From positions 27,566 to 91,565 of the forward strand of contig JAGVBU010000002.1 in NCBI GenBank assembly GCA_020059585.1: 64,000 bases of DNA, written 5' to 3'. Positions 23,657 through 47,800 of the stretch are shown piece after piece. The number at the start of each line of letters is the position of its first letter. The first letter of the stretch is position 1. The notes beneath the pieces are model-generated. The model had not been told where the DNA came from. It saw only the letters and a program-made list of their open reading frames with translations, and ran no database searches. Both the position numbers and the translations under genes were made by a program. The stretch comes from Minisyncoccota bacterium. Lineage in GTDB: Bacteria > Patescibacteriota > Minisyncoccia > UBA6257 > GWB1-50-10.

Positions 23657-23822
23657 TATCTACCTCCCTAATAAATTTTTTAAATGCGTATTGAATTGCT
23701 GTTATAATAATATAACATTTTATGCATTCTGTCAATATATTGTATGCCCGATGGGGATCGCCAAACGCATTGCTTCAGGGCACCCGAAACAAAAAAACGC
23801 CTGCAGCGTTTTTCGTTTTAAC

Positions 23823-26434: not shown

Positions 26435-26767
26435 TCAACTCTTCATCGCGTTTATCTTCGCCGCCATAATAAAATCATTTTCCGAGAGTCCTCCAATCGC
26501 ATGGGTTGAGAGCTCTATAATCACGTTTTTGTACGAGACAAGATGAATATCGGGGTGGTGTCCCTCTTCTTCCGCAATTTTCCCCACGGCGTTTACAAAC
26601 GAGAGTGCCGCGGCAAAATCAGAATTTTCAAATGTATGTATTATCTTCTTTCCGTCATCACTCATCTCCCACCCAAGCACTCCCGCGAGATATTTCTGCG
26701 ATTCCTCTTTCGTCATGGGCTTTGCTCCCCCCTCACATGGCACGCATTTTTTATTTAATAGATCCAT
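26435..26767 (-). CDS. Pterin-4a-carbinolamine dehydratase (PCD/DCoH).
   Basis: Start at MDLLNKK. Active-site block EEGHHPDI. About 110 aa. Confidence 0.85.
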   Translation of the reverse strand: MDLLNKKCVPCEGGAKPMTKEESQKYLAGVLGWEMSDDGKKIIHTFENSDFAAALSFVNAVGKIAEEEGHHPDIHLVSYKNVIIELSTHAIGGLSENDFIMAAKINAMKS

Positions 26768-26856
26768 GGGGTAAGTATACGGTAGTAAGTAGTAAGTAGT
26801 AAGGGTTCGATTCACCCTCGTCCCGATTTTCATCGGGACTCCTCTGCGGAAATAAG

Positions 26857-26888
26857 AATCCCGCCAGTCTATAGACTGGCGGGATGAT
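26857..26888 (-). terminator. Hairpin terminator copy downstream of a degenerate tRNA-Phe 3' fragment. It is the same 24-nt stem-loop as the tRNA-Arg terminator at 28587-28610.
   Basis: cccgccagtctatagactggcggg is a perfect palindrome, followed on the minus strand by a U-rich tract. Confidence 0.6.
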
Positions 26889-27066
26889 GGTGCCGCGGGG
26901 GTGAGATCGCCCTCGACTCAAAAGAGTGCCGTCGCACTCTTTTGGTCTGGGCACCGGCTCGCGGTGCATTCTGCTGAATGCACATCGCTCCGCCGTTCGA
27001 TTCACCACGCAACGCACGCAGGTGCGTTGCTCCCGCATAAAAACCCCTGAAGGGGTTTTTATTTTG
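26889..27066 (-). repeat. Palindrome-rich element of about 175 bp. It begins with a 15-nt copy of the tRNA-Phe 3' end and is related to the repeats downstream of tRNA-Arg.
   Basis: gtgccgcgggggtga is present at 26890 and at 27066. Shares the ctgggcaccgSctcgcgKtgcat motif and the gcattctgctgaatgca palindrome with the 28069-28618 units. Confidence 0.65.
27039..27065 (-). terminator. Rho-independent terminator immediately downstream of tRNA-Phe.
   Basis: aaaaacccctgaaggggtttttatttt. Confidence 0.7.
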
Positions 27067-27138
27067 TGCCGCGGGGGTGAATCGAACACCCGACACGACG
27101 CTCTTCAGGCGACTGCTCTACCACTGAGCTACCGCGGC
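27067..27138 (-). tRNA. tRNA-Phe (anticodon GAA).
   Basis: Hand-folded cloverleaf. Acceptor GCCGCGG/CCGCGGC. D-arm GCTC-AGTGGTA-GAGC. Anticodon loop CTGAAGA, with one U·U mismatch in the anticodon stem. T-arm GGGTG-TTCGATT-CACCC. Discriminator A. No encoded CCA. Confidence 0.8.
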
Positions 27139-27291
27139 GAATGGTGAGGAAAAGAATATATGTAATATATTGTTTTCGAACCGTGATGCCGAGGAATATT
27201 GCGTAAAACGCGCACCCCGCGACATCTCTGTCATAACGAAGAATATCACACGAAAAATACTTTTTCAATTTGGGTCGACACATTTATTTGC

Positions 27292-28068
27292 ATGGAATAC
27301 AATAATACCAACACAAAAAATATACCTATGCTCATCAACATTCTCACCGCAAGCATCATTGGAAGTGTCCTCGCTCTCGCGGGAGGGCTTCTTCTCCTCT
27401 GGAAAGAAAAATATATCCGAAACGCATCGCTTCTTCTTGTAAGTTTTGCCGCGGGAAGCCTTCTCGGCGCGGCGTTTTTTGATCTGCTTCCTGAAGCAAT
27501 TCACGAAGGAGGCGATCCCGCGGGAATATTCTCATTCGTACTCGGGGGAATTCTCGTGCTTTTTCTCTTTGAAAAACTCCTTAAATGGTATCATTGTCAC
27601 AATAAAGGCGTCTGCGAATACCACACCTTTTCAAGCGCGGTGCTTTTCGGTGATACCGTACACAATTTCATCGATGGAATCATCATCGCCCTCAGTTTCG
27701 GGCTTGGTGTGGAAATAGGCATCGCAACCACTATCGCGGTATTTCTCCATGAAATTCCTCAGGAGATAGGAGACTTTGGAGTGCTCCTCCACGCGGGATG
27801 GGAAAAGAAAAAAATCATTCTCGTGAATCTCGGCACCGCACTCGCCACCATCCTTGGAGGAATCCTCGGATATATCGCGCTTCCCTACGTATCTTCATTT
27901 CTTCCTCACCTCATAGGATTCGCCGCGGGAACATTTATCTATATCGCCGTGTCCGATCTTATGCCGGAACTCCGCCACGAGTCGAAACCGAAAGAGTTCG
28001 CTCATTTTTTCACCATTCTTCTCGGAATTCTCACTATTGTCGCCATCGGATCTTTCTTTGATCATTAA
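27292..28068 (+). CDS. zupT: ZIP-family zinc transporter (ZupT-like).
   Basis: 8 TM segments. ZIP signature HNFIDG...HEIPQEIGDF. His-rich loop WYHCHNKGVCEYH. The start could instead be 27328. Confidence 0.85.
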   Translation: MEYNNTNTKNIPMLINILTASIIGSVLALAGGLLLLWKEKYIRNASLLLVSFAAGSLLGAAFFDLLPEAIHEGGDPAGIFSFVLGGILVLFLFEKLLKWYHCHNKGVCEYHTFSSAVLFGDTVHNFIDGIIIALSFGLGVEIGIATTIAVFLHEIPQEIGDFGVLLHAGWEKKKIILVNLGTALATILGGILGYIALPYVSSFLPHLIGFAAGTFIYIAVSDLMPELRHESKPKEFAHFFTILLGILTIVAIGSFFDH

Positions 28069-28618
28069 GGCCCTTGCGCGCAAAACAATTTTTTGCCCTC
28101 GCCTCTCAGTCGCGCCGACGCGCTCTTTCGGGCTGGGCACCGCCTCGCGTGCATGTCTTCTGACACGCACTGGCTCCGGCGTACAAAATAGAACGCGAGA
28201 CAAATAATTGTCTCGCTTATGCGGCTTACGCCGCATTCTATTTTGTACCCCCGGCAGGAAAAAGGAATCGCCTACAAGTTCCTCCTCGTCGTCACTCGTC
28301 GGACTCGCAGGCCGCCGCTCGCCATGCATTCTGCTGAATGCATATGGCTGCGCGCTTCGATTCCTGCCCGCAAAACAATTGTTTTGCTTGGGGATACGAT
28401 AAAACACACAAAATTGTGTGTTTTATTTTCGTACCCCCGGCAGGAATCGGCTCCGACTAAAATTTTCACCGTCGTGAAAATTTTGTCTAGCCGCCGCCTC
28501 GCTCCCACGCCTACTGGCGTGGGTCCCGCTCCGGCGTTCGATTCCGCACGCAAGCAAATACTTTTGCTTGCTCGGGGGAAACAAATCCCGCCAGTCTATA
28601 GACTGGCGGGATGATTTG
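28069..28618. repeat. Tandem array of three roughly 186-bp palindrome-rich units. The second and third units each begin (in tRNA sense) with a 15-19 nt copy of the tRNA-Arg 3' end.
   Basis: gtacccccggcagga occurs at 28245, 28431 and 28618, with a period of 186-187 bp. Each unit holds 3-4 perfect hairpins. Confidence 0.75.
28578..28612 (-). terminator. Rho-independent terminator of tRNA-Arg.
   Basis: Minus strand, directly after the tRNA 3' end: cccgccagtc-tata-gactggcggg followed by atttgttt. Confidence 0.7.
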
Positions 28619-28690
28619 TACCCCCGGCAGGAATCGAACCCGCATCAAGGCCTTAGAAGAGCCCTGCACTATCCATTGTGCTACGGGGGC
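28619..28690 (-). tRNA. tRNA-Arg (anticodon UCU).
   Basis: Hand-folded cloverleaf. Acceptor GCCCCCG/CGGGGGU (G1·U72). D-arm GCAC-AATGGATA-GTGC. Anticodon stem GGGCT/GGCCT (two G·U pairs) with loop CTTCTAA. T-arm GCGGG-TTCGATT-CCTGC. Confidence 0.75.
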
Positions 28691-28733
28691 GTATTTCCAC
28701 GCTAAAGAAACTCGCGTGGAAAGTCAAAAAACA

Positions 28734-29897
28734 TTATCTCAAATCCGCGTGAAACTGAGAGGCGGTTTCTTTATAGAGTTTGTCTTGAAGAACATCAACC
28801 TCATCAGACACGAGCGTGCGATCATTCGATCGATACACTACGCGAAACGTATAACTCACCTTTTCCGGACCGAATTTCTTCTCATCCTCATACGTATCGA
28901 GAAGCTGCACCTCCTCAACAAGATCCCCGCCGATATCACGGATAAGATCATAATACTGGTTCACGAAAAATCCCTTCTTCACCACAAATGAAATATCTCT
29001 CGTGATGGGAGGATATTTACTTACCTCCTTGAATTTATTTCCCAGCACAAGCTGTTTTATAACTCTCGGATCTTCCGAACGGAGAAGGCGGATATCGGGA
29101 AGCTCCATACTTATAATCGCAAGGCGCTCCGCGCCAAATCCGAACGCCCATCCGGTATATTGTTTCGGATCAACGCCGAGTTTTTCCAACACCGATTGTC
29201 TCACCATCCCTCCGCCCAAAACCTCAAGCCATTGTCCGTTTACCTCAACCTCCATCTCAACACTCGGATCTGTGTAGGGAAACGCATCCTCATTGAAACG
29301 GAATTTTATATTTTCTCCGAAAATCGATTTCGCGATCTTCCCAAGAATATTCTTCAATTCCTCGAATGGCACCTCCCTATCGCTTGTGGGATGCAAATAC
29401 CATCCGTCGATCTGATGAAACACATTCAGGTGAAAGCGATCTATTTCGTCCTTCCTGTACACCTTTCCATACGCAAGCGACCCAAGGGGAAGATTTTTTC
29501 GTATCCGTTCCTGCATCTCCTCGGACTTCACGTAGTAATACCACATTATGGTAGTATGCGTTCTCAGAATATGTTCCCCATCCACAAAATACGTATCGGA
29601 CGCGCTTCGCGCGGGATGATTCGGGGGAAAATTAAAAAGATCAAAACTCTGGTCGGCGCGGACGATTTCCGGAACCTGGATATGGTCAAAATTCTTAAAA
29701 TCAGGGATTGCAAATATTCGCGATGCCAGTTCGTGTATCGGATGACCTTTCGTGCGCGTTAAATCGGCAAGCGCGAGAAATTTCGTGAGACGCTTGCTGT
29801 CCGCGTCGTCCTTTTCCGCGCACTTCTTCCGCAAACGCGCTTCATCCGGAGAGGAAACGGATAACCGAAGCCCCGGAAGATTTTTATAGAATTCCAT
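28734..29897 (-). CDS. pheS: Phenylalanine--tRNA ligase alpha subunit.
   Basis: Class II aaRS motifs (FRVVYRSNDRTLV; GWAFGFGAERLAIIS) and the PheS signature HPARSASDTYF. Confidence 0.9.
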   Translation of the reverse strand: MEFYKNLPGLRLSVSSPDEARLRKKCAEKDDADSKRLTKFLALADLTRTKGHPIHELASRIFAIPDFKNFDHIQVPEIVRADQSFDLFNFPPNHPARSASDTYFVDGEHILRTHTTIMWYYYVKSEEMQERIRKNLPLGSLAYGKVYRKDEIDRFHLNVFHQIDGWYLHPTSDREVPFEELKNILGKIAKSIFGENIKFRFNEDAFPYTDPSVEMEVEVNGQWLEVLGGGMVRQSVLEKLGVDPKQYTGWAFGFGAERLAIISMELPDIRLLRSEDPRVIKQLVLGNKFKEVSKYPPITRDISFVVKKGFFVNQYYDLIRDIGGDLVEEVQLLDTYEDEKKFGPEKVSYTFRVVYRSNDRTLVSDEVDVLQDKLYKETASQFHADLR

Positions 29898-30060
29898 ATT
29901 AAAACAAAAACCCTTCTTTCTGAGGGGTTCAACGAGACAAACTATGACGAAAAACCCCCGATTGATCAGGTAAAGAAAAATCTAAAGAATTTTTTTGCGA
30001 CTTTTTTCATTACCCAATTAGTGTACTCTATCGCATTAAAACTTCAAGAAGCGTTTTACC

Positions 30061-30090
30061 TTGCACGAAACCGCTCTTTTCTGGTAGTAT
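30061..30090 (+). promoter_or_regulatory. Sigma70-like promoter for the tRNA-Met gene.
   Basis: TTGCAC-N18-TAGTAT, ending 5 nt upstream of the mature tRNA 5' end. Confidence 0.5.
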
Positions 30091-30095
30091 GGTTC

Positions 30096-30169
30096 CGCGG
30101 GGTAGAGCAGTCCGGTAGCTCGCAAGGCTCATAACCTTGAGGTCGTTGGTTCGAATCCAACCCCCGCAA
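30096..30169 (+). tRNA. tRNA-Met (anticodon CAU); initiator-like C1·A72 acceptor mismatch.
   Basis: Acceptor CGCGGGG/CCCCGCA. D-arm GAGC-AGTCCGGTA-GCTC. Anticodon stem CAAGG/CCTTG with loop CTCATAA. T-arm GTTGG-TTCGAAT-CCAAC. A hairpin terminator follows at 30176-30210. Confidence 0.8.
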
Positions 30170-30256
30170 CAATAATCACACGCCTCTCAAGAAATTGAGA
30201 GGCGTGTGTTGTATAATTGACGCAAAACAGCGATTCGCATACCATAGAAAATATAT

Positions 30257-30330
30257 GCCAGGGTAGCTCAATCGGTTAGAGCACAGCACTCATAAAGCTG
30301 AGGTTGCGAGTTCGATTCTCGCCCCTGGTA
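30257..30330 (+). tRNA. Second CAU-anticodon tRNA (elongator Met or lysidine-modified tRNA-Ile2).
   Basis: Acceptor GCCAGGG/CCCTGGT (G·U). D-arm GCTC-AATCGGTTA-GAGC. Anticodon loop CTCATAA. T-arm GCGAG-TTCGATT-CTCGC. Confidence 0.75.
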
Positions 30331-30378
30331 CAAAAAGAACCTCTGTTTTGGTATAATATAGCCACAGGGCTGTTTTTT

Positions 30379-31059
30379 ATGGCAAAAACAAAAGAAAAAA
30401 ATGTAGCCACTTCCCTAAGAAGAAAAGGGATGAGTATAAAGGATATTTCGAAGACTCTTCATGTTTCAAGGAGTTCGGTGAGTGTGTGGTGTTCCAACAT
30501 ATTACTCACAAAGAAGCAAGAGGAATCTTTAAGAGAAAAGATGATATCAGCAGGACACAAGGGAAGATTATTGGGGGCAGAAAAGCAAAAAAAGAAGAGG
30601 GAAGAAATTATACAAAAATATAAAGAAGAGGGGTTAAAAAATATACAAGATATAGATTCTAGAGATCTTTTAATGATTGGGATAGGACTCTATCTTGGTG
30701 AGGGAAATAAAACGGGAAATAAGTTTCAATTCACTAATTCAAATCCTGATATAATTTGTATCATGCTTTTATGGCTTACGAAAATATTTAAAATAAAGAA
30801 AAGCCACATTGTGCTCAACGTCCTTATTAATGGAATCCACGTAAAGAGAGAGCTACGCGTTCGTCGTTTTTGGTCACAAATCACGAATATACCAGAAAAA
30901 CAATTCAATAAAACAATTTTTATAAAATCCAAGAACAAAAAAATGTATGAAAATTTTTCAAATCATTTCGGCACTCTCGTGATCAGGGTGAGAAAAAGTT
31001 CTCTCCTCCAATATAAGATTTTAGGACTTTGTCATGCATCAATAAAAAATACGATATGA
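30379..31059 (+). CDS. AT-rich ORF with an N-terminal helix-turn-helix and a LAGLIDADG-like motif; a possible homing-endonuclease-type selfish gene.
   Basis: HTH-like MSIKDISKTLHVSRSSVSVW. The motif LLMIGIGLYLGEGNKTG resembles the LAGLIDADG (L-x-G-L-Y-L-G-D-G) class. Strongly AT- and Lys-rich relative to its flanks. Confidence 0.5.
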   Translation: MAKTKEKNVATSLRRKGMSIKDISKTLHVSRSSVSVWCSNILLTKKQEESLREKMISAGHKGRLLGAEKQKKKREEIIQKYKEEGLKNIQDIDSRDLLMIGIGLYLGEGNKTGNKFQFTNSNPDIICIMLLWLTKIFKIKKSHIVLNVLINGIHVKRELRVRRFWSQITNIPEKQFNKTIFIKSKNKKMYENFSNHFGTLVIRVRKSSLLQYKILGLCHASIKNTI

Positions 31060-31110
31060 AATCGTATTGCAAAACAGAATAAGCGTTGATACACTAAATT
31101 CGCTATGTTT

Positions 31111-31184
31111 GCGGGCGTAGCTCAGCTGGTTAGAGCGATTGCCTGTCACGCAATAGGTCGCCGGTTCGAGTCCGGTCGCCCGCG
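31111..31184 (+). tRNA. tRNA-Asp (anticodon GUC).
   Basis: Acceptor GCGGGCG/CGCCCGC. D-arm GCTC-AGCTGGTTA-GAGC. Anticodon stem ATTGC/GCAAT with loop CTGTCAC. T-arm GCCGG-TTCGAGT-CCGGT. Discriminator G. Confidence 0.85.
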
Positions 31185-31188
31185 CAAG

Positions 31189-31219
31189 AAAAACATCCAT
31201 AATACGGATGTTTTTTGTT
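31189..31219 (+). terminator. Rho-independent terminator of tRNA-Asp.
   Basis: aaaaacatccataatacggatgttttttgtt. Confidence 0.7.
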
Positions 31220-31312
31220 ACCGGACTTGAACGGGAAAGGGCGGTGGGAAAACGGGAGTTTTCCCAAGGCGGATAACATAAACCGATGGGTTTGTGAGAG
31301 TTTTGAAAAAAC

Positions 31313-31372
31313 GACGTTCGATTCCGTCGCCCGCGCAAAAAAAAACATCCATTATGTGGATGTTTTTTGTTA
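31313..31372 (+). repeat. Direct duplicate of the last 23 nt of tRNA-Asp (T-loop plus acceptor 3' strand), followed by a second copy of its terminator.
   Basis: cgttcgattccgtcgcccgcgca, then aaaaacatccattatgtggatgttttttgttacc. Compare 31162-31222. Confidence 0.7.
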
Positions 31373-31562
31373 CCGTATTTGAACGAGGAGTGAATTCTTG
31401 TTTGAAAAAAGCAGAAAATCGAGTAAAGTCATAGATATGAATCCCGTTAGAAACCGCGATCGCGGGGACATATAAGCACTCTATTAAACGAACGTATATG
31501 TCAGTCGAAACAAAAACAAATCACATAATGGATCGTTTGATTGCGGTCTGTTTCTAAATGGG

Positions 31563-32261
31563 ATGAAAGCAGTCATTCTTGCTGCGGGAGAAGGAGTACG
31601 AATGCGTCCGCTCACGCTTACGCGTCCAAAACCGCTCGTGCTTCTCGACGAAAAACCTCTTCTTCATTATCTCGTTTCCTCTTTTCCGAAAGAGATTTCC
31701 GAGCTTATCATCGTTACCGGATATCTTGGAAACCAAATACGCGATTATTGCGGTGATTCCTTCCTCGGGAGACGGGTCACTTATGTTGAACAAAGAGAAA
31801 AAACAGGAACATTCGACGCGTTGAAACTCTGCGAACCTTATCTCAATGACAAAGAGCCGTTCGCCGTGTTTTATGCAGACGATCTTATTGACCGTGACAC
31901 GATAACACGCCTTATTGCATATCCCCTTTCTCTTGTGGTCGCCGAGGTTCCCGATCCTTGGCGCTTCGGGGTCGCGACGCTCCGCGATGATGGAAAACTC
32001 AAAAGTATAGAGGAAAAGCCTGAAAATCCCAATTCAAATCTCATCGTGACGTGCGCATATGTACTCTCAAAAGAAATACTCACTTATTCCCCCGTTCGGC
32101 ATCCGAACGGAGAATACTATCTTTCGTCCGTGATAAGTGAATTTGCAAAAGATCACGATATCGACGTAGTACATTCTTCGTTTTGGTTCCCCGTGGGAAC
32201 ACCCGGAGACCTTGCGCGGGCAGAAGAAATAATAAAAGAGCGTCCGGAACTCCTTTCATGA
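31563..32261 (+). CDS. Sugar-1-phosphate nucleotidyltransferase (NTP_transferase family).
   Basis: N-terminal MKAVILAAGEGVRMRPLTLTRPKPL, matching the G-x-G-t-R-l-x-P-l-T pyrophosphorylase signature. 232 aa. Confidence 0.8.
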   Translation: MKAVILAAGEGVRMRPLTLTRPKPLVLLDEKPLLHYLVSSFPKEISELIIVTGYLGNQIRDYCGDSFLGRRVTYVEQREKTGTFDALKLCEPYLNDKEPFAVFYADDLIDRDTITRLIAYPLSLVVAEVPDPWRFGVATLRDDGKLKSIEEKPENPNSNLIVTCAYVLSKEILTYSPVRHPNGEYYLSSVISEFAKDHDIDVVHSSFWFPVGTPGDLARAEEIIKERPELLS

Positions 32262-38547: not shown

Positions 38548-39027
38548 TTAATAACGCACCTGATAGAACGTCTCAAGAAGCCGCTCCGTCCGGTCGGCAG
38601 TACCGAACGAACGCACTCGCAATCCATACACAAGGTCATTCTCGGTGCAATCGACTGACGAGATTCTGTCGGCGCCTACGCACCACAATTTTGCTTTATA
38701 TGAGGCTGAATTTCCCACGGAGCCGTTTAGCGTCAATACTCCATCCTCGAAAATACCGCAATTTCCGGAAGGCGCTCCCGATATCCTGAATACGTTCTCA
38801 TTAAGATAATAGCATCCAAGCGCCTCTTCGAGACCCGCATCAGTCGCGAAAACCGCCATCCCCGAGGTGATCGCGTCATTCGATTGCCGCAATTCCATAT
38901 GCATAAGAAACCCCGCGATTACGGTTGCGGAAAGCACAATGAAGCCGGTGATGATGGTAATAAGTATCATCGCCTGACCATCTCGCGCGTGAAATGTGAT
39001 ATTTTTTCTCGTCATATTTCTTTGCAT
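38548..39027 (-). CDS. Pilus-associated protein with an N-terminal TM helix (PilX-like minor pilin candidate).
   Basis: Hydrophobic segment AMILITIITGFIVLSATVIAGF without the +5 Glu. Position is distal in the pilin gene string. Confidence 0.45.
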   Translation of the reverse strand: MQRNMTRKNITFHARDGQAMILITIITGFIVLSATVIAGFLMHMELRQSNDAITSGMAVFATDAGLEEALGCYYLNENVFRISGAPSGNCGIFEDGVLTLNGSVGNSASYKAKLWCVGADRISSVDCTENDLVYGLRVRSFGTADRTERLLETFYQVRY

Positions 39028-39626
39028 CGATGAGGATCGGCACCGCTTGCGTTCTGTATCTCCCTCGGCAAAATTCGCGAACTCACCGTGGTGCTTATGA
39101 ACGATGATGGCGCCCCCAGAGGATTCTCAAGATTGAGGTTTTTTGATTTTATCTCAAGGCTAATAACAAATCTTGGCGGATAGCATACCGGATTCTGAGA
39201 ATCTCCCGAATAAAACGAATAAAAGCAAAGATTCTTCACCTCAACATTCGAGGCGGTTAAAGGACCGCTTCCTCCTCCTGACGAGGATCTCGTGATCGCG
39301 CCGCCGCTTAACGCATACGTGATCACTACCGGATTTCCTGACATATCTATCTCCTGTCCGCTTGTAAATGTGATTGACTGCGCGCAATCCGAAAGAGACG
39401 CAGCCTGCCCCTCTCCGAAATATCCTGTGCGCAATTCGCGCGCCATCTGCTCAAGTACAAGTCCCGCATTGTTATTCATCGAAATGCGCTCGCTGAGGAA
39501 CCTTTGATTTTTTGTCGCGCCGAAAAATACTCCTATCGCGCCCACAAAAAATACAACAAACACGGTCATCGCGACAAGAAGCTCAACTACCGTGAAACCC
39601 TCGTTATGTGCTTTGTGGTGTTTCAT
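39012..39626 (-). CDS. Type IV prepilin-like minor pilin/pseudopilin.
   Basis: Class III signal peptide G|FTVVELLVAMTVFVV. Confidence 0.65.
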   Translation of the reverse strand: MKHHKAHNEGFTVVELLVAMTVFVVFFVGAIGVFFGATKNQRFLSERISMNNNAGLVLEQMARELRTGYFGEGQAASLSDCAQSITFTSGQEIDMSGNPVVITYALSGGAITRSSSGGGSGPLTASNVEVKNLCFYSFYSGDSQNPVCYPPRFVISLEIKSKNLNLENPLGAPSSFISTTVSSRILPREIQNASGADPHRCKEI

Positions 39627-40180
39627 TATTGCGGATTATACTGGGGAGTTGAACGCTCTCTCCAGTTTTGAAATACATCGGAAAGATGCACTGTATATTT
39701 TCTTCCATCCGCCGTCCATTCCACGAAGGAATCGACAGTGATCACATCGCCGCTCGCGCCCACCTTCACCGTGCGATAGTAGGGAGTTGTGAGCGATCCA
39801 TCATATGAATATCTCCCCGTCGTTTTATTGAGGCGAAGAGGCGTGGTGGAAGTAGAGGCAAGCGAGGAAGGAAGCGTGTCAAGCTTCGTGTCGTATTCAA
39901 TCTCGAACCACCCCGAAAGTCCCTCATTCCACGTCGCTGAATCCGTCCGATATGTTCTTTCCACGTTTGTATCGATTATATTTTTAATCACCTCTATTCC
40001 TTCCGCCGCAAGATAAGTCGCCACAACGCGATTCTCAACATCCTTATTCATATGCGTCGATCGCGTCACAAGATTGAATATCCCCACAAGCCCCACAACA
40101 ACAAGGCTGATCGCGATCATTGATTCGATCATCATGCTTCCCTTCCTCTGACTGTTTTTTTTGAATTGATGATTCAGCAT
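39626..40180 (-). CDS. Type IV prepilin-like minor pilin.
   Basis: KG|SMMIESMIAISLVVV prepilin cleavage/methylation motif. Confidence 0.6.
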   Translation of the reverse strand: MLNHQFKKNSQRKGSMMIESMIAISLVVVGLVGIFNLVTRSTHMNKDVENRVVATYLAAEGIEVIKNIIDTNVERTYRTDSATWNEGLSGWFEIEYDTKLDTLPSSLASTSTTPLRLNKTTGRYSYDGSLTTPYYRTVKVGASGDVITVDSFVEWTADGRKYTVHLSDVFQNWRERSTPQYNPQ

Positions 40181-40188
40181 ATCGAATA

Positions 40189-40707
40189 TTATTTTATTGA
40201 AATAGAGCCTCCCGCGCTCACTTCGATTATTTTTTCATATGGGAGCCCCGCGATTTTCATTCGTATCTCGCCTGAATTTTCCGTTTCAAGATACGGCGCG
40301 ACAAACGCAACCCATCCCTGATTTGGAATCATCGAGAATGACACACCCGAATCAAGCTGATACGAATTCACTGTTTCGCGCGCGCCGGCATTTCCTACGG
40401 GACACGTGAAATCTTCAACGTCCTTCGTGACGCGAAATATCGAATACGCGCCGCCCATCGTGAAAGAGACTCCGTACGCGCACACCCGCACGTCAATATT
40501 CACATCGTCCTTCTTGAGACGCTGGAGCGTGAGGGACTTCGCTTCCTCCAACACGCCCATCACCTTCATCTCCTCCGTATAAAGCAGGAGATTCTTCCCG
40601 CTCGTACGGTTAAACCCTATAAAAAGCGATGAGAGAATCAGCATAATCGCGGTTACCACGATTATTTCAACAATAGAAAATCCTTCTTTTTTCTTCCTAT
40701 TCTCCAT
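40189..40707 (-). CDS. Type IV prepilin-like minor pilin.
   Basis: EG|FSIVEIIVVTAIMLIL. Confidence 0.65.
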   Translation of the reverse strand: MENRKKKEGFSIVEIIVVTAIMLILSSLFIGFNRTSGKNLLLYTEEMKVMGVLEEAKSLTLQRLKKDDVNIDVRVCAYGVSFTMGGAYSIFRVTKDVEDFTCPVGNAGARETVNSYQLDSGVSFSMIPNQGWVAFVAPYLETENSGEIRMKIAGLPYEKIIEVSAGGSISIK

Positions 40708-40755
40708 ATGTATATACCCTAATGATACCACGCGGAGATGGTCTTTTCGAGGAAA

Positions 40756-41664
40756 TTAGAAGGAAAAAAGCGCTGAAAAATACCACTCTATGATCGCGTG
40801 GCCGAAGAACACCGCCGCCACGAATCCAAGCACGAGAAACGGCGCGAATGGAACCCTGTCTTTCATTTTTTTTATCCTCAGAAAAAAGGCCGTTGCCGCC
40901 CATATGCCCCCAAAAAGAAAGGAAAAAAATATCGCAACGCCAACATCAGGCCATCCAAGAAGGATCCCCGAGGAAAACGCGAGTTTCACATCCCCCATTC
41001 CCATTCCTCTCCCTTTGCTCGCGGCAAAAAGCGCCGAGAAAAATGTTCCCGCGATGAGTGACCCCGCGATCCTCCCTCCCACAATTCCCACGAAAGGAGA
41101 GAATATAAGAGTGTAGTTTTTAACAAACGATTCACGAAACGGGATGAGCGTATCTCCATAAAACACGAGAATCGCCGCGATTGCCGCTCCGGACAGCGCG
41201 AAAAAAATATGGAACTCATCGGGAATTATATAGTGCTTTATATCAATAAGAAGCATTACGAGCCACGCGAGAAAAACCGCCGTCCAAAGACTAAGAAGCG
41301 CGTACTGCCACCACGGAGCCGAAAAAGAGAAAAGAGACTCTACTGATATTCCGTAGAATCGCGCGAGAAAGATTGGCACCCCCGCGACGATAAACCCGCT
41401 TATGATTTCGACAAGCGGATATTGAAAAGAGATTTTTTCCTTGCATCTCGCGCACTTCCCCCTCAAAAAAAGAAAACTGAAAATAGGAACGAGAGACGAC
41501 GCGGAAATTGTCTTTCCGCACTTCATGCAATGAGATCTCCCTGTAAAGTGGGGAGTGAAAAAAAGCGGCCGCGCGGGATCATAACGCGCAACGAACACAT
41601 TATTCAGAAAACTCCCCAGCGCCGCGCCAAGAAGGAAAAGCGCGCACGCGAAAAATATTATCAT
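40756..41664 (-). CDS. pilD: Prepilin peptidase (A24 family, PilD).
   Basis: N-terminal Zn-binding CMKCG...CARC. Polytopic, with conserved Asp-containing loops. Confidence 0.85.
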   Translation of the reverse strand: MIIFFACALFLLGAALGSFLNNVFVARYDPARPLFFTPHFTGRSHCMKCGKTISASSLVPIFSFLFLRGKCARCKEKISFQYPLVEIISGFIVAGVPIFLARFYGISVESLFSFSAPWWQYALLSLWTAVFLAWLVMLLIDIKHYIIPDEFHIFFALSGAAIAAILVFYGDTLIPFRESFVKNYTLIFSPFVGIVGGRIAGSLIAGTFFSALFAASKGRGMGMGDVKLAFSSGILLGWPDVGVAIFFSFLFGGIWAATAFFLRIKKMKDRVPFAPFLVLGFVAAVFFGHAIIEWYFSALFSF

Positions 41665-41729
41665 TGTCTATTCATTATAAAAAAAGAGAGGCGCAATTGC
41701 ACCTCCCCTTCCAGTAACACGCTCTATGA

Positions 41730-42143
41730 TTACGGACACAACGCCCCGCTCGGCGCGGTTGTCGTTATCTTTGCGGTACCCGTGCTGTCAACGCAGTAAT
41801 ACTGCGTTGCGCCTGTTCCTGTTTTCGTGAGAAGTGGCGAAGACACCCTATAGTCCGTTCCGGAAACGCTTACAGCAAGCACCCCTCCTTGGCTCGTCAC
41901 TTCTGTCACAAGTCTTACCACAGACGTCTGACCCGTAGTGAAATCAGCATACGGCGTCGCGCTTGCGGGATTATAAAGCGTTTCCGCGATTGCGCGGGCC
42001 TGCTGTATCGCGCTTGTGATTCTTGCGTCTTTTGCCTTATCTCTTGAAGGACCGAGCGCAACCAACACCGCCGCGGAAAGAATACCTATAATAGCGACTA
42101 CCACCAACATTTCAATCAATGTAAAACCCTTATTTGATTTCAT
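41730..42143 (-). CDS. pilA: Type IVa major pilin.
   Basis: MKSNKG|FTLIEMLVVVAIIGIL. 137 aa. C-terminal Cys pair (CVDS...CP) for the D-region disulfide. Confidence 0.8.
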   Translation of the reverse strand: MKSNKGFTLIEMLVVVAIIGILSAAVLVALGPSRDKAKDARITSAIQQARAIAETLYNPASATPYADFTTGQTSVVRLVTEVTSQGGVLAVSVSGTDYRVSSPLLTKTGTGATQYYCVDSTGTAKITTTAPSGALCP

Positions 42144-42209
42144 ATTTACGAAAATTCTTATGCCTCGACCTTGAAAATTGATATGTCTCATTATATCACA
42201 TCTTTTTCC

Positions 42210-43415
42210 TCAAAACGATTGCGTCAAACTGTAGAGCGGAAGGAGAATCGCGGCAAAGAGAAGCGCGATCATTCCCCCGATAATCACCATAAGAAGAGGC
42301 TGGATGAGCGTCACAAGATTATTCACCATATCCTCAACCTCTCTCGTATAAAAATCATTTACCTTTTTCAGAAGTTCCTCGAGTCGCCCCGTTGATTCTC
42401 CTATTGAGACAAGTTGCGACACAAGAGGGGGGAATTCCTCAATTTCCTCAAGAATTTTCGAAAGAAGCTTTCCTTTGCGTATCTGCTCGGACGCTCCCTG
42501 CAAAAGGTCCTCGTATATTTTATTTCCTACCGTTCTCGAGGAAATTTCTATCGCCTGCGGGATAGTGAGTCCGCCACGGATGAGCACGCGCGTTGATTCC
42601 GCGAAACGCGCGATATACATCTTTCTCAAAAGTTTTCCCACTACCGGCGTATGGAGACTCACCTCATCAAGCACGAGACGCCCTTCCTTCGTCTGTAAAT
42701 AATCGATAAGGATAAAAATGAATATCGCGAATAGAAGCATCATCGCCCACCACCACTCCCCTATGAATATTCCCGACTTTAATATAAGCGTCGTATAGAA
42801 AGGAACCGCGACATTTGCCTCTTCAAACACCGGCATAATCTGCGGAAACACAAATGTCACCATGATAAGAATCACGACGAAAAAGAGTATGACAACGAAG
42901 ACAGGATACGCGAGCGCATTCTGAACTTTCGATTTCAAAAGAGCCTGCTTCTCGAGATAGTCCGCGAGGAAGTCCATCACCTCCGAAAGACGCCCGGTGA
43001 CCTCCGCGGAGCGCACCATATTGATGTAAAAATCGGAAAAAATTCCCGGATGTTTTTCAAATGCCTGCGACAAGGAGAATCCGGCGTCAACGTCGTTCGA
43101 TATCTCATAGATCGCTTCCTTGAGAATCGGGTTTGTTGTCTGTTTGAAAAGATTTATAAGACTGTCTGAAATGGAAACCTGTGACGCGAGAAGTGTCGCG
43201 AATTGCCGCGTGAAAATCATCACGTCGTTCACCTTCACCCGCTTCAAAAATCCAAGGATGCGCTCGTACCACACGTCGTTCTTTTCCTCCTCGATACTCA
43301 GCACAAAAAGCCCGTGTCCAAAAAGTATATTGAGCGCGGTTTCTCTGTTTGACGCCTCCACGTCTCCCACCTGCAACTCGCCCTCCTTTGTTCTCGCTTT
43401 GTATTGAAACTTCAT
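42210..43415 (-). CDS. pilC: Type IV pilus inner-membrane platform protein (GspF/PilC family).
   Basis: 401 aa. Two repeated GspF domains. Family-typical topology and sequence. Confidence 0.9.
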   Translation of the reverse strand: MKFQYKARTKEGELQVGDVEASNRETALNILFGHGLFVLSIEEEKNDVWYERILGFLKRVKVNDVMIFTRQFATLLASQVSISDSLINLFKQTTNPILKEAIYEISNDVDAGFSLSQAFEKHPGIFSDFYINMVRSAEVTGRLSEVMDFLADYLEKQALLKSKVQNALAYPVFVVILFFVVILIMVTFVFPQIMPVFEEANVAVPFYTTLILKSGIFIGEWWWAMMLLFAIFIFILIDYLQTKEGRLVLDEVSLHTPVVGKLLRKMYIARFAESTRVLIRGGLTIPQAIEISSRTVGNKIYEDLLQGASEQIRKGKLLSKILEEIEEFPPLVSQLVSIGESTGRLEELLKKVNDFYTREVEDMVNNLVTLIQPLLMVIIGGMIALLFAAILLPLYSLTQSF

Positions 43416-43426
43416 TTTTTTATATA

Positions 43427-44497
43427 CTATGAACGCTCAAGCAATATTCTCAATTCCGAAGGATTCAGCGAATAGGCCTCTGCCTGCTCCACAGAAATTT
43501 CTTTTCGCTTTATCAGGTTTACAAGCGATCGGTTCAGAGACATCATTCCGTCCTGAACGCTTGTTTCTATCACAAGATCAATCTGATATATCTTCTTCTC
43601 GCGAATAAGATTTCTGATCGCGGGATTTACAAGCATGATTTCCGCCGCGGGCACGCGTCCCCCTCCAACACGTGGAACAAGACGCTGGGATACCGTCGCG
43701 ACAAGCGTTGACGCGAGCTGCGAAATCACCTGTCCCTGCTGATTTGGGGGAAAGCTGTCGATAATGCGATCTATTGTCTGGGACGCCGAGTTAGTATGAA
43801 GCGTGGAAAATACGAGATGTCCGGTTTCCGCCGCGGTCATCGCGGTCGCGATTGTTTCCGGATCGCGCATTTCCCCAACCATAAGCACATCAGGATCCTG
43901 ACGGAGAATCGCACGGAGCGCATCCTGAAACGAATGCGTATCGTCCCCGACTTCACGCTGTGAAATTATCGAACGATCCTGCGAAAAAATATATTCAATG
44001 GGATCTTCCACGGTGACAATATGATCGTTTCTCGTGTGGTTTACCTCATCGAGCATCGCCGCAAGCGTCGTGGACTTTCCATGTCCCGCGGGACCCACAA
44101 TAAGAATAAATCCTTGATTCATCCGCGCGAAATCATGCAATATCGGCGGAAGACTCAATTCCTCTATCGTGCGTATCTGAGCGGGAATAAGACGGAGCGC
44201 CGCGGCAACAAATCCCCTCTGAAAATAGACGTTTACGCGAAACCTCGCCTTATCTTCGAAATTGTATGAAAAGTCTATCTGCCTGCGGTCGAGAAGCTCT
44301 TTCATCTGCTCCTCTGTGAGCATCGCGGAAATAAGTCCCTCCGCATCCTCTTTTGTGATGATAGATTCTTTCGCAAGCGGAATGAGCACGCTATCAATGC
44401 GTATCGTGGGGCGCCGTCCCACAGCGATATGAATATCCGACGCGTTTTGCTTCGCGGTCACAAGAAGAAGTTCGTTGAGTTTTTGCTTATAATCCAT
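43427..44497 (-). CDS. pilT: Type IV pilus retraction ATPase PilT.
   Basis: 356 aa. Walker A GPAGHGKSTT. Asp box. Walker B LVGEMRD. His box. No N-terminal extension, which fits PilT rather than PilB. Confidence 0.85.
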   Translation of the reverse strand: MDYKQKLNELLLVTAKQNASDIHIAVGRRPTIRIDSVLIPLAKESIITKEDAEGLISAMLTEEQMKELLDRRQIDFSYNFEDKARFRVNVYFQRGFVAAALRLIPAQIRTIEELSLPPILHDFARMNQGFILIVGPAGHGKSTTLAAMLDEVNHTRNDHIVTVEDPIEYIFSQDRSIISQREVGDDTHSFQDALRAILRQDPDVLMVGEMRDPETIATAMTAAETGHLVFSTLHTNSASQTIDRIIDSFPPNQQGQVISQLASTLVATVSQRLVPRVGGGRVPAAEIMLVNPAIRNLIREKKIYQIDLVIETSVQDGMMSLNRSLVNLIKRKEISVEQAEAYSLNPSELRILLERS

Positions 44498-44538
44498 TCT
44501 TTTATCTTATCATACTTTTTCTCCGTATTCCTTGAGGA

Positions 44539-46287
44539 TTATTCCTCCTCCTCGGTCTCACGGAGCACTTCTTCTATAAGCACCTTCCCCTCGAGTGCCT
44601 TCATAACGCCATCCTGCCGAAGCGTGATCATTTCCTGCCTCCGCGCCTCTTCCCACAAATCAGCCTCCGTGAAGCTCTTGTTTATTATTTTTCCCACCTC
44701 TCTCGTCATCTGAAATACCTCAAGAAGTGCTACCCTTCCTTTTATTCCCTTTCCTTTACACATAGGACATGATGCGTCACCCCCCGCGCGGTACGTATGA
44801 TATGGACCATTTCCGAATTTCGAAACAATTTCCTTGCGGACTTTTTCAGGAAGCTCTTTTATCGCTTTTTCAATTGACTCCTTTATCTCTCCTTCCGCAA
44901 TCTCCTCTTTTCTGCATTTTTGACACACCTTTCCGACAAGTCGCTGCGCAAGCATGATATTCAACGCCGAGGAAAGAAGAAACGGGGGTACGCCGAGGTC
45001 AATAAAACGCGGAATAACGCCGATTGAATTGTTCGTGTGGATTGTGGAAAGCATCACATGACCGGTAAGTGCCGCGTTCACCGCAAGAGACGCGGTTTCC
45101 GTGTCGCGGATTTCACCAACCATTACCACATCGGGATCCTGGCGGAGAATCTGACGGAGTCCTGACGCGAACGTATATCCTATTTCCGGCTTTACCTGAG
45201 ACTGGTTGATCCCCGTCATAAAATATTCAACAGGATCTTCGAGACTCACTATGTTCACCGCGTCCGAATTCAATTTCTGCATCATCGCGTACAGCGTGGT
45301 GCTCTTTCCAGATCCGGTGGGTCCCGATATGAGAATCATGCCGAAAGGCGCGTTCAACGCGTTTTCAATAATCTCATAGTCCTGATTGTTGAGTCCCACG
45401 TCCTTAAGATCCTTGAGTCCTCCGATTGCGTCGAGCACGCGGATCGCCACCTTTTCTCCCGAAGGAGTGGGAAATGTCGCGATACGAAAATCTATCTCGC
45501 GTCCGGAAATGAGCGTTCGGAAGCGTCCATCTTGAGGCATGCGCGTTTCATCGAGCCGTAATTTCGCCAACACCTTCACACGGGAAATGACGGGCTGAGA
45601 TAATACGCCAGGAAGCGACGCGACTTCATGTAATTCTCCATCGATGCGGAAACGGACACGCAAATAGTTCCTTTGCGGTTCTATATGAATATCGGATGCG
45701 GCGCTCTCCACCGCGTGCCGCAGAGTTGAGGCAACTATCTTTATAATCGGCGCGTCATCAGGAGTGCGCGCACCCTCTTCAAGCGCGACCACTCTGTCCG
45801 ATTCGCTCTGCTTGAGATTCATCTCTTTTATCGCTGATTCTATCTCGTCTTTATATGGAAGGTAACGTCGCCACACTTCCGCGAGATCCGACGGAGTGAC
45901 GAGATATACGCCGAGACTTACCCGTTCGCGCTTCGCGATAAAACGCAATGCTTCTTGCGCGCGGAGATCGTCAGGGTGCAACATACCCACGACAAACATA
46001 TCTCCCGTTTTCTCTATGGGGATCACGCGATAATTCTGGGATGTGTCTTTCGGAATCAGCTTAAAAAGCTCCTCGGGAATAAGCGCGGGATTTATTTTTT
46101 TATATGGCGCTCCAAGGAGCGCGCTTTTTACCTTCGCGATCGCGCTTTCATCCACATGCGCGCGATCATACAAAAGCTCCTCCGCGGAAGTATTCGAAAG
46201 TTCCGCTTCGTGCAAAATCTTTTCCGCGAGCGCGGAATCGATTATGTTCTTTTTTACCAACTCGTCAAATAATTGCTCGTTCTTCAT
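44539..46287 (-). CDS. pilB: Type IV pilus assembly ATPase PilB (GspE family).
   Basis: 582 aa. N-terminal GSPII domain. Walker A GPTGSGKSTT. Tetracysteine Zn motif CQKC...CPMC. Confidence 0.9.
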   Translation of the reverse strand: MKNEQLFDELVKKNIIDSALAEKILHEAELSNTSAEELLYDRAHVDESAIAKVKSALLGAPYKKINPALIPEELFKLIPKDTSQNYRVIPIEKTGDMFVVGMLHPDDLRAQEALRFIAKRERVSLGVYLVTPSDLAEVWRRYLPYKDEIESAIKEMNLKQSESDRVVALEEGARTPDDAPIIKIVASTLRHAVESAASDIHIEPQRNYLRVRFRIDGELHEVASLPGVLSQPVISRVKVLAKLRLDETRMPQDGRFRTLISGREIDFRIATFPTPSGEKVAIRVLDAIGGLKDLKDVGLNNQDYEIIENALNAPFGMILISGPTGSGKSTTLYAMMQKLNSDAVNIVSLEDPVEYFMTGINQSQVKPEIGYTFASGLRQILRQDPDVVMVGEIRDTETASLAVNAALTGHVMLSTIHTNNSIGVIPRFIDLGVPPFLLSSALNIMLAQRLVGKVCQKCRKEEIAEGEIKESIEKAIKELPEKVRKEIVSKFGNGPYHTYRAGGDASCPMCKGKGIKGRVALLEVFQMTREVGKIINKSFTEADLWEEARRQEMITLRQDGVMKALEGKVLIEEVLRETEEEE

Positions 46288-46340
46288 AGATAACGTTGTT
46301 CGAATCGGAGACCCTTTCTCTCGAATATCCGCGTTCCCAC

Positions 46341-46637
46341 TTATTGCAGAGGCTGAAACGGGTTGTCGCGTCCGGGAATCTGTACCTTCGAAATATTCGA
46401 GGCATATTGCCGGAGCGATTTGAATACAGGAGAATCTATCACGCTCGCCGGATCAAACGTAAGTTCAGATATGCGATCTATTTCCTGAAGTTGGCGCGGG
46501 GCAACTACTTCTATGAGTTCTGGTTTTTTGAAAAAAAGCACATAACTTCCAAAACCCACAATACCTAAAATAATAAACACAATGACCATTGCGAACCAAT
46601 TCACGGGTTTTTTTTCTTCTTCAATAATAATCGCCAT
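46341..46637 (-). CDS. Small single-TM protein inside the pilus operon.
   Basis: 98 aa with one TM segment. Function unknown. Confidence 0.45.
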   Translation of the reverse strand: MAIIIEEEKKPVNWFAMVIVFIILGIVGFGSYVLFFKKPELIEVVAPRQLQEIDRISELTFDPASVIDSPVFKSLRQYASNISKVQIPGRDNPFQPLQ

Positions 46638-46642
46638 AATAG

Positions 46643-47230: not shown

Positions 47231-47248
47231 TGTATAGAATATACCGCC

Positions 47249-47800
47249 TTATAATTTTTTCAGCGCGTCGGCGCTCATATGAAGTATGATGGAAAATCCG
47301 ACCTCCTGATTTGAGAATTGAACATTTTCCACGATCGCCTTTTCATCGAATTCAGGAGCCGCGTCAAACACCGCAAGCTGTTCTATAAAATCATCCATCG
47401 ATTTAGCTCCCCCCGAAAGCTCAATAACGCGGTCGACTCCCATAATCTTTGCGCCCGAATAATACACCGTGGGGAGCGTATATTTATCGAGAAAATCGAA
47501 TGATTTGACGATAAACTGGTGCTTTTCAAGCACTGTTCGAAGATTAACAAGCTGGGAATAAAATGAGATGAGATTTTGTTGATCTTCCTGACTTATCTGA
47601 CTCGCGAGTTCCTGTATCTTCTGATCGAGCGTTTCGGAGCGAGAATCAAGATACGACTCATACCCGAACCGGAATCCAAAATATATAAAAAGAGAGAGGC
47701 CGAACACTATTCCCGAAAAAAGAAGTATCCTCCACGGAAGACCCGCAGTATCAATCCCGCGAAATACATCTCCTCCGTTTTGTTGTGTGGGTGATGCCAT
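47249..47800 (-). CDS. PilN-like bitopic pilus alignment protein.
   Basis: N-terminal TM segment, coiled-coil, then a periplasmic domain. Immediately downstream of pilM. Confidence 0.5.
   Translation of the reverse strand: MASPTQQNGGDVFRGIDTAGLPWRILLFSGIVFGLSLFIYFGFRFGYESYLDSRSETLDQKIQELASQISQEDQQNLISFYSQLVNLRTVLEKHQFIVKSFDFLDKYTLPTVYYSGAKIMGVDRVIELSGGAKSMDDFIEQLAVFDAAPEFDEKAIVENVQFSNQEVGFSIILHMSADALKKL

Follow-up and report, generated by a model that had tools for sequence, protein, structure and literature searches.

Integrons stack small cassettes in tandem at one fixed entry site. Their attC sites are conserved in structure and variable in sequence, and are closed by paired inverted core sites with the consensus GTTRRRY and RYYYAAC. 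REP/BIME elements and REPINs carry hairpins in alternating orientation with conserved linkers; they occupy gene 3' flanks, overlap terminators and vary in copy number between strains. MITEs are small, non-coding, hairpin-rich and strain-polymorphic. Integration within tRNA genes is said to follow sublocation rules, which Williams reportedly set out in 2002. tRNA gene fragments of integrase-mediated integration are common; such integration is associated with a direct repeat from the T-loop to the tRNA 3' end, an intact tRNA, tandem arrays with the newest member next to the tRNA, and downstream fragments (PMC9897764). Casposons and CRISPR arrays share addition next to a fixed leader with duplication of a repeat of ~20 nt, and casposons target tRNA 3' ends, where they form tandem arrays (PMC4779613). 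tRNA-like processing signals are also known (PMC1920247).

Here, we describe hairpin-rich units behind tRNA genes in a 64-kb stretch of DNA (the window) and in related contigs. The units share one architecture, are restricted to tRNA flanks, carry arms that match the resident tRNA, covary in structure, are present in some strains and absent from others, and have scaffolds in common across tRNAs and genomes. They resemble each system above in the features just named, with a tentative near match to the integron core consensus, the tRNA in the place of the leader and apparent addition next to it; their predicted acceptor/T-stem mimic downstream of a gene could be cut by RNase P/Z, as with t-elements and mascRNA (PMC1920247). 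Each of these nearest systems nevertheless fails at least one defining feature. Unlike integrase elements, the units are 150-190 nt long and gene-less, no integrase was found, an inverted tail copy is present in each, one scaffold serves several tRNAs, and some junctions are imprecise. Unlike in integrons, no IntI, attI or Pc was seen, there are no cassette ORFs, the arrays start at a tRNA gene, and the paired arms reach ~20 bp into the tRNA tail. REPs, which have an associated RAYT transposase, share one sequence dispersed genome-wide, whereas here the arm is the tail of the upstream tRNA and units occur nowhere but in tRNA flanks of the sampled loci. In contrast to MITEs, the units are not scattered, a tRNA tail of 12-24 nt always serves as the 'target duplication', and the inverted arms vary with the host tRNA instead of being constant in a family. 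Unlike casposon or CRISPR spacers, the 'spacers' are a few conserved structured families. Compared with t-elements and mascRNA, the T-loop is replaced by a long insertion and terminators isolate each unit. A literature search returned no earlier description; hairpin-rich units behind tRNA genes are a class not previously described in the searchable literature.

The window holds six tRNAs, as an earlier note on this DNA had counted. All were called by ARAGORN and 6/6 were confirmed by Rfam: His, Phe and Arg(TCT) on the minus strand, two Met and Asp on the plus strand. The monomeric PheRS of the window has its best matches in Patescibacteria/Paceibacterota MAGs, and the genes around the arrays are housekeeping genes. 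Exact-protein look-ups with two window proteins and one further protein returned no match. Relatives were defined as contigs syntenic around PheRS (L121-L126, L127-L206, L224-L229, L231 and L232; ~1 Mb in total), and the sample thus consists of loci syntenic with one PheRS gene.

The earlier note had reported that the tRNA-Asp 3' end and its terminator recur downstream. The repeat is real. Gapped alignment of 31155-31240 with 31307-31392 gave 69/88 identities and a local score of 94, far above 500 shuffles (mean 15.9, maximum 32). Its extent and its tRNA-derived share had been misjudged. The repeat search returned 31186-31233 versus 31338-31385 (48 nt, 88% identity, spacing 152) and 31175-31193 versus 31326-31344 (19 nt, 95% identity). 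The supposed 23-nt tRNA copy includes an exact tRNA copy of only 13 nt, gtcgcccgcgcaa (31175-31187 = 31326-31338), and its T-loop-like part, cgacgttcgattcc (31312-31325), is a conserved scaffold 3' end that is also found behind tRNA-Met of L185. The repeat had been taken to end at 31372; it reaches 31385, through the terminator and an inverted T-arm copy of 12 nt. More than a plain duplication, the repeat bounds a 152-nt non-coding cassette, which comprises, in order, a terminator, an inverted T-arm copy, a multi-hairpin scaffold of type II and the 13-nt exact tail copy. The features of the locus are as follows.

31111-31185, plus strand: tRNA-Asp(GTC) gene (ARAGORN; Rfam tRNA, 71.9 bits), with 31175-31187 as the left copy of the boundary repeat
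31186-31216, plus strand: terminator 1, read from the sequence as an A-run, the hairpin catcc/ggatg (31194-31198 / 31206-31210) and a T-run
31221-31232, plus strand: arm B1, ccggacttgaac, inverted tRNA-Asp T-loop/T-stem, the reverse complement of gttcgagtccgg with 1 mismatch
31233-31325, plus strand: type II scaffold (homologs by nhmmer; consensus fold and alignment)
31326-31338, plus strand: tail copy gtcgcccgcgcaa, identical to tRNA-Asp 31175-31187, the right boundary repeat
31339-31368, plus strand: terminator 2, catcca/tggatg and a T-run, directly behind tRNA-Asp in the cassette-free strain L232
31373-31384, plus strand: arm B2, ccgtatttgaac, a terminal partial unit whose position and flank are the same in L232 and L122

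In the scaffold, the conserved strand gggaaagggcggtg is followed by hairpin a (31246-31265), then by ggcgga and the 8-bp hairpin b with loop gatg (31277-31296); the 3' end, cgacgttcgattcc, is T-arm-like and pairs with arm B1. The Asp unit has arm B and no arm A.

Strain L232 is 97.8% identical to the window in PheRS DNA and 99.5% identical in the Asp flank, and it is without exactly the 152-nt Asp block; its tRNA is joined straight to terminator 2 and B2. Judged from this alignment, terminator 1 is part of the cassette and is absent from L232. Terminator 1/B1 and terminator 2/B2 are only ~88% alike; therefore, the window state is not a fresh local duplication. The arrangement is best explained as a cassette that sits between the tRNA-Asp gene and its older terminator. 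The array stops right behind the ...GAAC of B2 (31384), and the Asp flank of L122 holds nothing more. In the window, a genuine MITE with 4-bp target duplications lies 60 nt downstream, at 31442-31562.

Chance similarity or an assembly artefact would be the least probable account of this locus and is very unlikely. Short-read contigs do break within arrays (L231), and one close strain (L232) is without the Asp cassette. Against it stand the alignment score, which lies far beyond the shuffles, the enrichment of the pattern across tRNAs described below, and the cassette sequence itself, which is unique and has homologs in assemblies of other samples. The artefact that the earlier note had allowed for is unlikely because homologous units are present behind tRNAs in the independent assemblies L124/L128, L185, L226 and L122. 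The arrays do have practical consequences: they break short-read assemblies, as in L231, and are mis-called as genes (a 147-aa 'ORF' in L121-L123).

The downstream 3' copies that had been reported behind tRNA-Phe and tRNA-Arg are present, with periods of 176 nt (Phe) and 186/187 nt (Arg); the Arg tail copies lie at 28449-28431 and 28259-28245. When the DNA between the copies was compared, the Asp locus had the same architecture as the Phe and Arg loci but a different scaffold sequence (type II versus type I). The arrays on the minus strand are laid out as follows.

26803-27065, minus strand: tRNA-Phe array, consisting of terminator Ta, a type I unit, terminator T1 and a terminal partial unit
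27036-27032, minus strand: arm A of the Phe type I unit
27030-27009, minus strand: hairpin HP1 of this unit
27008-26995, minus strand: arm B of this unit
26994-26910, minus strand: scaffold of this unit, followed by the tail copy at 26909-26890
26888-26857, minus strand: terminator T1 of the Phe array
26849-26803, minus strand: terminal partial unit of the Phe array, A-HP1-B
28075-28617, minus strand: tRNA-Arg array of three type I units, found as covariance-model matches
28430-28578, minus strand: Arg1 (134 bits)
28251-28394, minus strand: Arg2 (115 bits)
28075-28223, minus strand: Arg3 (91 bits)
23779-23822, minus strand: terminator behind tRNA-His, then gggtgcc (23785-23779), the inverted acceptor strand

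The Phe unit matches the covariance model at 26889-27037 with 149 bits and folds at -75.7 kcal/mol (z = -6.1). With HP1 taken out, its arms again match the reverse-complemented tRNA-Phe tail at 17/17 positions. Folds in the Arg array have z = -5.1 to -7.0, and Arg2 has an imprecise junction, cgattcc-tttt-tcctgcc. Terminator T1 of the Arg array (28584-28615) is 32/32 identical to 26857-26888 of the Phe array, and this hairpin has just two copies in the 64-kb window, both inside arrays. By its sequence, the gggtgcc behind tRNA-His is what is left of a His-type unit, of which L122 has the intact form (10301-10454; covariance-model match 10307-10454, 137 bits).

In every case, the order on the tRNA strand is tRNA, terminator, inverted tail copy, scaffold, direct tail copy and next terminator. 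The unit terminator is bidirectional and consists of an A-run, a G+C hairpin and a T-run. The tail copy spans the 3' half of the T-loop to the discriminator, or to CCA; an encoded CCA is kept in some copies, for example those of tRNA-Arg in L124 and L129. In type I units (Phe, Arg), the inverted copy is split into arm A, HP1 and arm B. Arm A reverse-complements the 3' strand of the acceptor (Arg cccccg, Phe gcggg), and arm B the T-stem 3' strand together with the T-loop (..ggaatcgaac). Scaffolds are family-specific, have two to three hairpins and end in a T-loop-like CGATTC. The tandem arrays can be parsed into successive [tail, terminator, (A-HP1-)B, scaffold] blocks, and a partial terminal unit that ends just past arm B (...GAAC) is common, as at 26803 (Phe) and 31384 (Asp) of the window. 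In MFE and consensus folds, the tail pairs with arms A and B to give an acceptor/T-stem-like helix that uses the tRNA 3' strand. The branch point of HP1 falls exactly on the acceptor/T junction, from which the body of a tRNA departs. An inverted tRNA pseudogene was considered as the source of the scaffold and rejected, with no sequence similarity and no tRNA model match on either strand.

The direct repeats begin at T-loop positions ~56-60 and finish 0-4 nt beyond the tRNA end. Direct repeats from the T-loop to the tRNA 3' end are also seen in integrase-mediated integration, of which tRNA gene fragments are a common product (PMC9897764), and the repeats might accordingly be attL/attR scars of a decayed integrase prophage or island in the tRNA T-loop. 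Such scars are very unlikely here. Only 118-213 nt separate the repeats, several tRNAs have in common the conserved, structured and non-coding scaffold that fills this interval, and each unit contains an inverted tail copy. No integrase or transposase was detected by Pfam scan among the 29 window ORFs, and a jackhmmer search with an approximate XerD query returned no XerD-like recombinase in ~1 Mb of related loci. Viral contigs searched with three unit motifs gave just tRNA-like or chance matches, with the type I model at ≤11.5 bits, and are without copies of the units.

The T-loop GTTCGAT and the arm B motif ATCGAAC each match 6/7 positions of the attC core consensus given above, and the two pair, a possible likeness to integrons in sequence. 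A bolder reading is a cassette-capture system, in which the T-loop of the tRNA gene would act as an integron attI or a CRISPR leader. A single-stranded cassette would fold so that its arms rebuild the duplex of the tRNA acceptor/T region, a putative trans-acting recombinase would insert it at the T-loop, and the cassette's own tail and terminator would restore the tRNA. We consider such a system unlikely; if real, it would establish a class of site-specific mobile element that is new and has so far been seen only in Patescibacteria, and an enzyme inserting units would represent a new tRNA-directed recombination system. With the same approximate XerD query, no tyrosine recombinase or IntI was found beside the arrays in any sampled locus, and Cas1 was absent from the Pfam-scanned window ORFs. 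Group II introns, retrons, T-boxes, IS200/IS605 omega-RNAs and bridge RNAs were dropped as candidates, with no associated protein or Rfam signal.

A scan for tail recurrence was run on 76 non-redundant tRNAs of the related contigs, each with at least 250 nt of downstream sequence. Copies of a tRNA's own tail were enriched downstream. The own 13-nt tail (≤2 mismatches) recurred at up to 450 nt downstream of 16/76 tRNAs; one of these (L204) was the next tRNA, which left 15, compared with 1/74 upstream and 7/380 with the tails of other tRNAs. The offsets were 118-213 nt. The inverted own T-arm (positions 53-65, ≤2 mismatches) lay within 200 nt downstream of 14/76 tRNAs, compared with 0/74 upstream and 13/380 with other tRNAs. 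Among the tRNAs with such copies are Arg, Phe, His, Asp, Met and Leu; PheRS identity between their contigs and the window is 60-99%. All 18 distinct matches (14 of type I and 4 of type II) in ~1 Mb lie behind tRNAs. Complementarity to the acceptor 3' strand behind terminators is not a general trait of tRNA terminators (10.8% versus 9.5% with other tails). The pattern CGGAGC...GCGAGSCGGYG, searched across genome contigs, is G+C-rich and gave 120 chance matches in high-GC genomes. The units are best explained as a class confined to tRNA 3' flanks in this Patescibacteria lineage, among the PheRS-syntenic loci sampled. The earlier note had suggested a systematic process, either a small element family or integrase activity. 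An element family is borne out by the enrichment of tails and inverted arms and by the scaffold families; integrase activity is not, with no recombinase in or near the arrays. Patescibacteria are ultra-small bacteria with tiny genomes that leave little room for repeats, yet about one fifth of the sampled tRNA genes carry strain-variable arrays.

Within one scaffold type, the arms vary with the tRNA in front (Arg ccccg, Phe gcggg, His gggtgtcctaa). Three cases show that they follow the resident tRNA. tRNA-Arg of L226 has an unusual T-loop, TCCGATT, and its arm B, gaaggaatcggac, is a reverse complement without mismatch (13/13); the TCCGATT loop is no longer present in the 3' arm of the unit itself, and arm B fits the tRNA rather than the strand opposite it in the unit. 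For Asp in L122, arm ccggatttgaac is a perfect reverse complement of the T-arm of the same genome, gttcaaatccgg. Arm A shifts from cccccg in the window to ccccga in L124, in step with the acceptor pair of tRNA-Arg. Derivation of arm A from the 5' acceptor strand of the tRNA was also considered and set aside; the His ggg fits the reverse-complemented tail past the discriminator, a weak distinction of one nucleotide.

Comparison of closely related arrays revealed turnover. Between L232 and the window, the Arg array differs by a 290-nt indel whose ends lie within a ~17-nt direct repeat, and in the Phe array the terminal unit is replaced; the L232 Phe array carries an exact tandem duplicate. At the species level, L124 has a clean extra of 171 nt relative to L129, made up of a tail, a new terminator and a type I unit, and the indel is bounded by GATTCCT(A/G)CTCGGGGTACCAAAA, a tail repeat of 23-24 nt. 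An A specific to L124 is present in the tRNA and in the proximal copy; the distal copy keeps G. Therefore, the proximal unit appears to be the younger, its tail mirroring the present tRNA. Deletion between direct repeats is an alternative account of every such presence/absence comparison. The Arg unit of L122 is chimeric, with the 5' half of window Arg1 and the 3' half of Arg3 joined at the gcgaggcgg motif, which shows recombination between units.

We favor, with about even confidence, the interpretation that the units are DNA-level cassettes, selfish or neutral, which are gained and lost at the repeat from the tRNA T-loop to the 3' end. A cassette would be gained beside the tRNA, bringing its own terminator and displacing the previous tail and terminator downstream, so that the proximal unit would be the youngest. 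Recombination of one tail copy with another, or at conserved internal motifs, would remove or reshuffle units. Arms would be re-templated on the resident tRNA by gene conversion or by template switching during replication, which would also keep hairpins perfectly paired. Because of such gain, loss and re-templating, action at the level of DNA is preferred. The confinement to tRNA flanks, the portable scaffolds whose arms track the resident tRNA and the recent turnover count in its favor. We infer the direction of the events (insertion or deletion), the templating step, the action on DNA and not on RNA, and any trans-acting enzyme. Against DNA-level cassettes, no recombinase or transposase that would insert them was found in the searched loci.

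The scaffolds fall into families. RNAalifold analysis of eight aligned type I units (Phe, Arg, His) gave a common structure with HP1, the closing helix B/B' and two hairpins at a three-way junction, in which 34/45 pairs show compensatory change. The covariance model built from these eight units found 14 distinct units in ~1 Mb, all behind tRNAs and none elsewhere. In the alignment of the 14 units, 92.1% of cells were paired, compared with 66.7% in shuffles and 32-44% with the partners slid; both sides had changed at 39/45 pairs, and 0/500 shuffles reached any of these measures. Type I folds are very stable (z = -5.1 to -7.0), with invariant loop and junction motifs (GACG loop, CGGAGCG...GCGAG). 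Wobble pairs make up 2% of pairs, with 13 GU versus 7 AC (p = 0.26), i.e., no strand bias. Whole hairpin tips are swapped yet perfectly paired, and the T1 loop shows a palindromic double change, CTATAG versus CCATGG.

The Asp unit had no match to the type I model. Its type II homologs lie behind L124 tRNA-Asp (nhmmer E = 1e-31), L185 tRNA-Met (2e-28) and L226 tRNA-Arg (5e-11), and L128 tRNA-Asp is followed by a type II unit as in L124. Type II units have two conserved hairpins, a closing helix in which arm B pairs with the T-arm-like 3' end, and the near-invariant strands gggaaaggggtcg, ggcgga and aaccgctgggtt; these single strands are near-invariant although PheRS is only ~60% identical between the genomes (L185). 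Type I occurs behind Arg, Phe, His and Asp, and type II behind Asp, Met and Arg. The architecture recurs with other scaffold types behind Asp (L145/L150), Met (L198, L129), Leu (L196/L199) and Arg (L129).

The covariation and invariant motifs of type I and the invariant strands of type II look like functional constraint, which speaks against purely DNA-level cassettes. Such conservation fits a functional RNA or a protein-bound site. As modelled, the closing helix would mimic the tRNA acceptor/T-stem stack with a branch at the junction, which a purely selfish DNA model leaves unexplained. The main rival, possible but rather doubtful in our judgment, is a small structured RNA or RNA processing module whose predicted acceptor/T-stem mimic would be seen by RNase P, RNase Z or the CCA-adding enzyme. 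By analogy with plant mitochondrial t-elements and mascRNA, the 3' strand of the closing helix would be the tRNA tail, and the scaffold hairpins would carry the function. The stability of type I folds (z = -5 to -7), the strong covariation with conserved loops and junctions, the precise branching of HP1 at the acceptor/T-stem junction, the encoded CCA retained in the L124 and L129 Arg copies and the terminator behind every unit are consistent with such an RNA. Other findings argue against it. A strong terminator stands between the tRNA and each unit, and no consistent promoter-like site was found between terminator and unit, with strong terminators on both sides. Strains that are ~98% identical differ in whether a unit is present, and orthologous sites hold units of different types. 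Partial units, or units that have no tail (L122 Arg), close many arrays, and arm B of L226 fits the T-loop of its tRNA and not the in-unit partner. The Asp unit folds only weakly to modestly (z = -2.2). In Rfam, only tRNAs reached the gathering score, and at E ≤ 10 over 26600-31600 only noise was returned. The covariation itself may reflect a DNA process rather than selection on RNA, given that wobble pairs are scarce and without strand bias and that entire hairpin tips are replaced. Should the units be RNAs, they would add a new, tRNA-mimicking class of small RNA to organisms whose non-coding RNAs are almost uncharted.

Template switching during replication, or gene conversion, is suggested by three features: hairpin tips swapped whole with pairing kept, palindromic double changes and arms that are quickly re-tailored. 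Template switching creates and maintains perfect hairpins and mimics compensatory change (PMC8794818), and fold-back switching gives direct-inverted-direct arrangements (PMC10766183). It is conceivable, though improbable, that the units are of purely local origin: template switching at the terminator hairpin and back (fold-back/ODIRA-like), followed by slippage expansion, would yield a direct-inverted-direct triplication of the tRNA tail with no mobility between loci. The order of tail, terminator, inverted tail and tail is the signature of an inverted triplication (PMC10766183), and the double change CTATAG/CCATGG, the tips replaced with pairing kept perfect and the exact tandem duplicate in the L232 Phe array agree with such an origin. 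It leaves unexplained the homologous scaffolds behind different tRNAs in different genomes, and by sequence the scaffolds are not reverse complements of the tRNA body. A further difficulty is the core of window Arg2, which differs from unit 1 behind L122 tRNA-Phe by one 4-nt loop indel and 3 substitutions over ~125 nt. Of this core, 90 nt are identical (~97% overall), with the differences in arms A and B, whereas the PheRS DNA of the window and L122 is only 80% identical. This likeness suggests a scaffold phylogeny incongruent with the phylogenies of host and locus, and, like the identical T1 of the Arg and Phe arrays, it speaks for movement between tRNA contexts.

For cassettes acting at the DNA level, a scaffold could reach a new tRNA by three routes. 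It might recombine at the T-loop sequence that tRNAs have in common, or be carried by a trans-acting recombinase. Alternatively, arrays might be exchanged through homologous neighboring units after DNA uptake; type IV pilus and ComF-like genes are present in the window.

Gene callers predict a 147-aa protein across the array of hairpin-rich cassettes behind tRNA-Arg in three related Patescibacteria contigs (L121, L122, and L123), and a comparable mechanical ORF is found in the window:

L121 6527-6970, L122 4880-5323, and L123 7195-7638: predicted 147-aa protein across the tRNA-Arg unit array
Window 28219-28614: mechanical ORF, 131 aa

No Pfam match was obtained for the 147-aa protein of L121-L123. 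Both ORFs lie over the G+C-rich repeats of the Arg array and are almost certainly spurious. Assemblies also appear to be broken by the arrays: the 1432-nt short-read contig L231, from a 99% relative, stops approximately 150 nt past PheRS, within the tRNA-Arg array. PheRS of the window is monomeric and of mitochondrial-type architecture, with thousands of homologs in Patescibacteria:

Window 28734-29897, minus strand: PheRS, 387 aa, class II core plus FDX-ACB anticodon-binding domain

A terminator palindrome of 32 nt is 100% identical in two copies, and no third copy was found within the 64-kb window:

Window 26857-26888: inside the Phe array
Window 28584-28615: behind tRNA-Arg

The ortholog of this terminator in L122 (89% relative) carries a symmetric double loop change, CTATAG to CCATGG. 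The tRNA-His flank of the window appears to hold what remains of a His-specific unit of type I, the scaffold family found behind tRNA-Phe and tRNA-Arg; an intact His-specific type I unit is present at L122 10301-10454.

Window 23779-23822, minus strand: inverted acceptor strand (gggtgcc) 3' of the tRNA-His terminator, then a decayed stretch

A cluster and an accompanying gene bear on DNA uptake as a possible route of cassette exchange:

Window 39012-48907, minus strand: type IV pilus/competence-like cluster (pilins with N_methyl, prepilin peptidase, T2SSF, T2SSE, and PilM)
Window 48965-49678: ComF-like gene

A free-standing ORF is flanked by tRNA-Met and tRNA-Asp:

Window 30381-31059, plus strand: LAGLIDADG-type homing-endonuclease-like ORF, motif LYLGEGNK, N-terminal HTH_23

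It is present in L232, the contig of a strain ~98% identical to the window (weak Pfam match, LAGLIDADG_3), and absent from L122, where the gap from tRNA-Met to tRNA-Asp is 80 nt. Differing small ORFs lie between the two tRNA-Met genes in other relatives.

L232 lacks a MITE that, in the window, sits exactly at the start codon of an NTP-transferase gene (ATG at 31563), with a 4-bp target duplication (TGAA). Relatives of this MITE were found in four contigs:

Window 31442-31562: MITE, 121 nt, terminal inverted repeats TCCCGTTAGAAAC / TCCCATTTAGAAAC
L127 6487-6604: relative with the duplication TGGA, likewise at a start codon
L134 3937-4019: relative
L185 2356-2429: relative
L129: relative

The MITE inverted repeat is identical over its first 10-12 nt to tRNA-His positions ~59-68.
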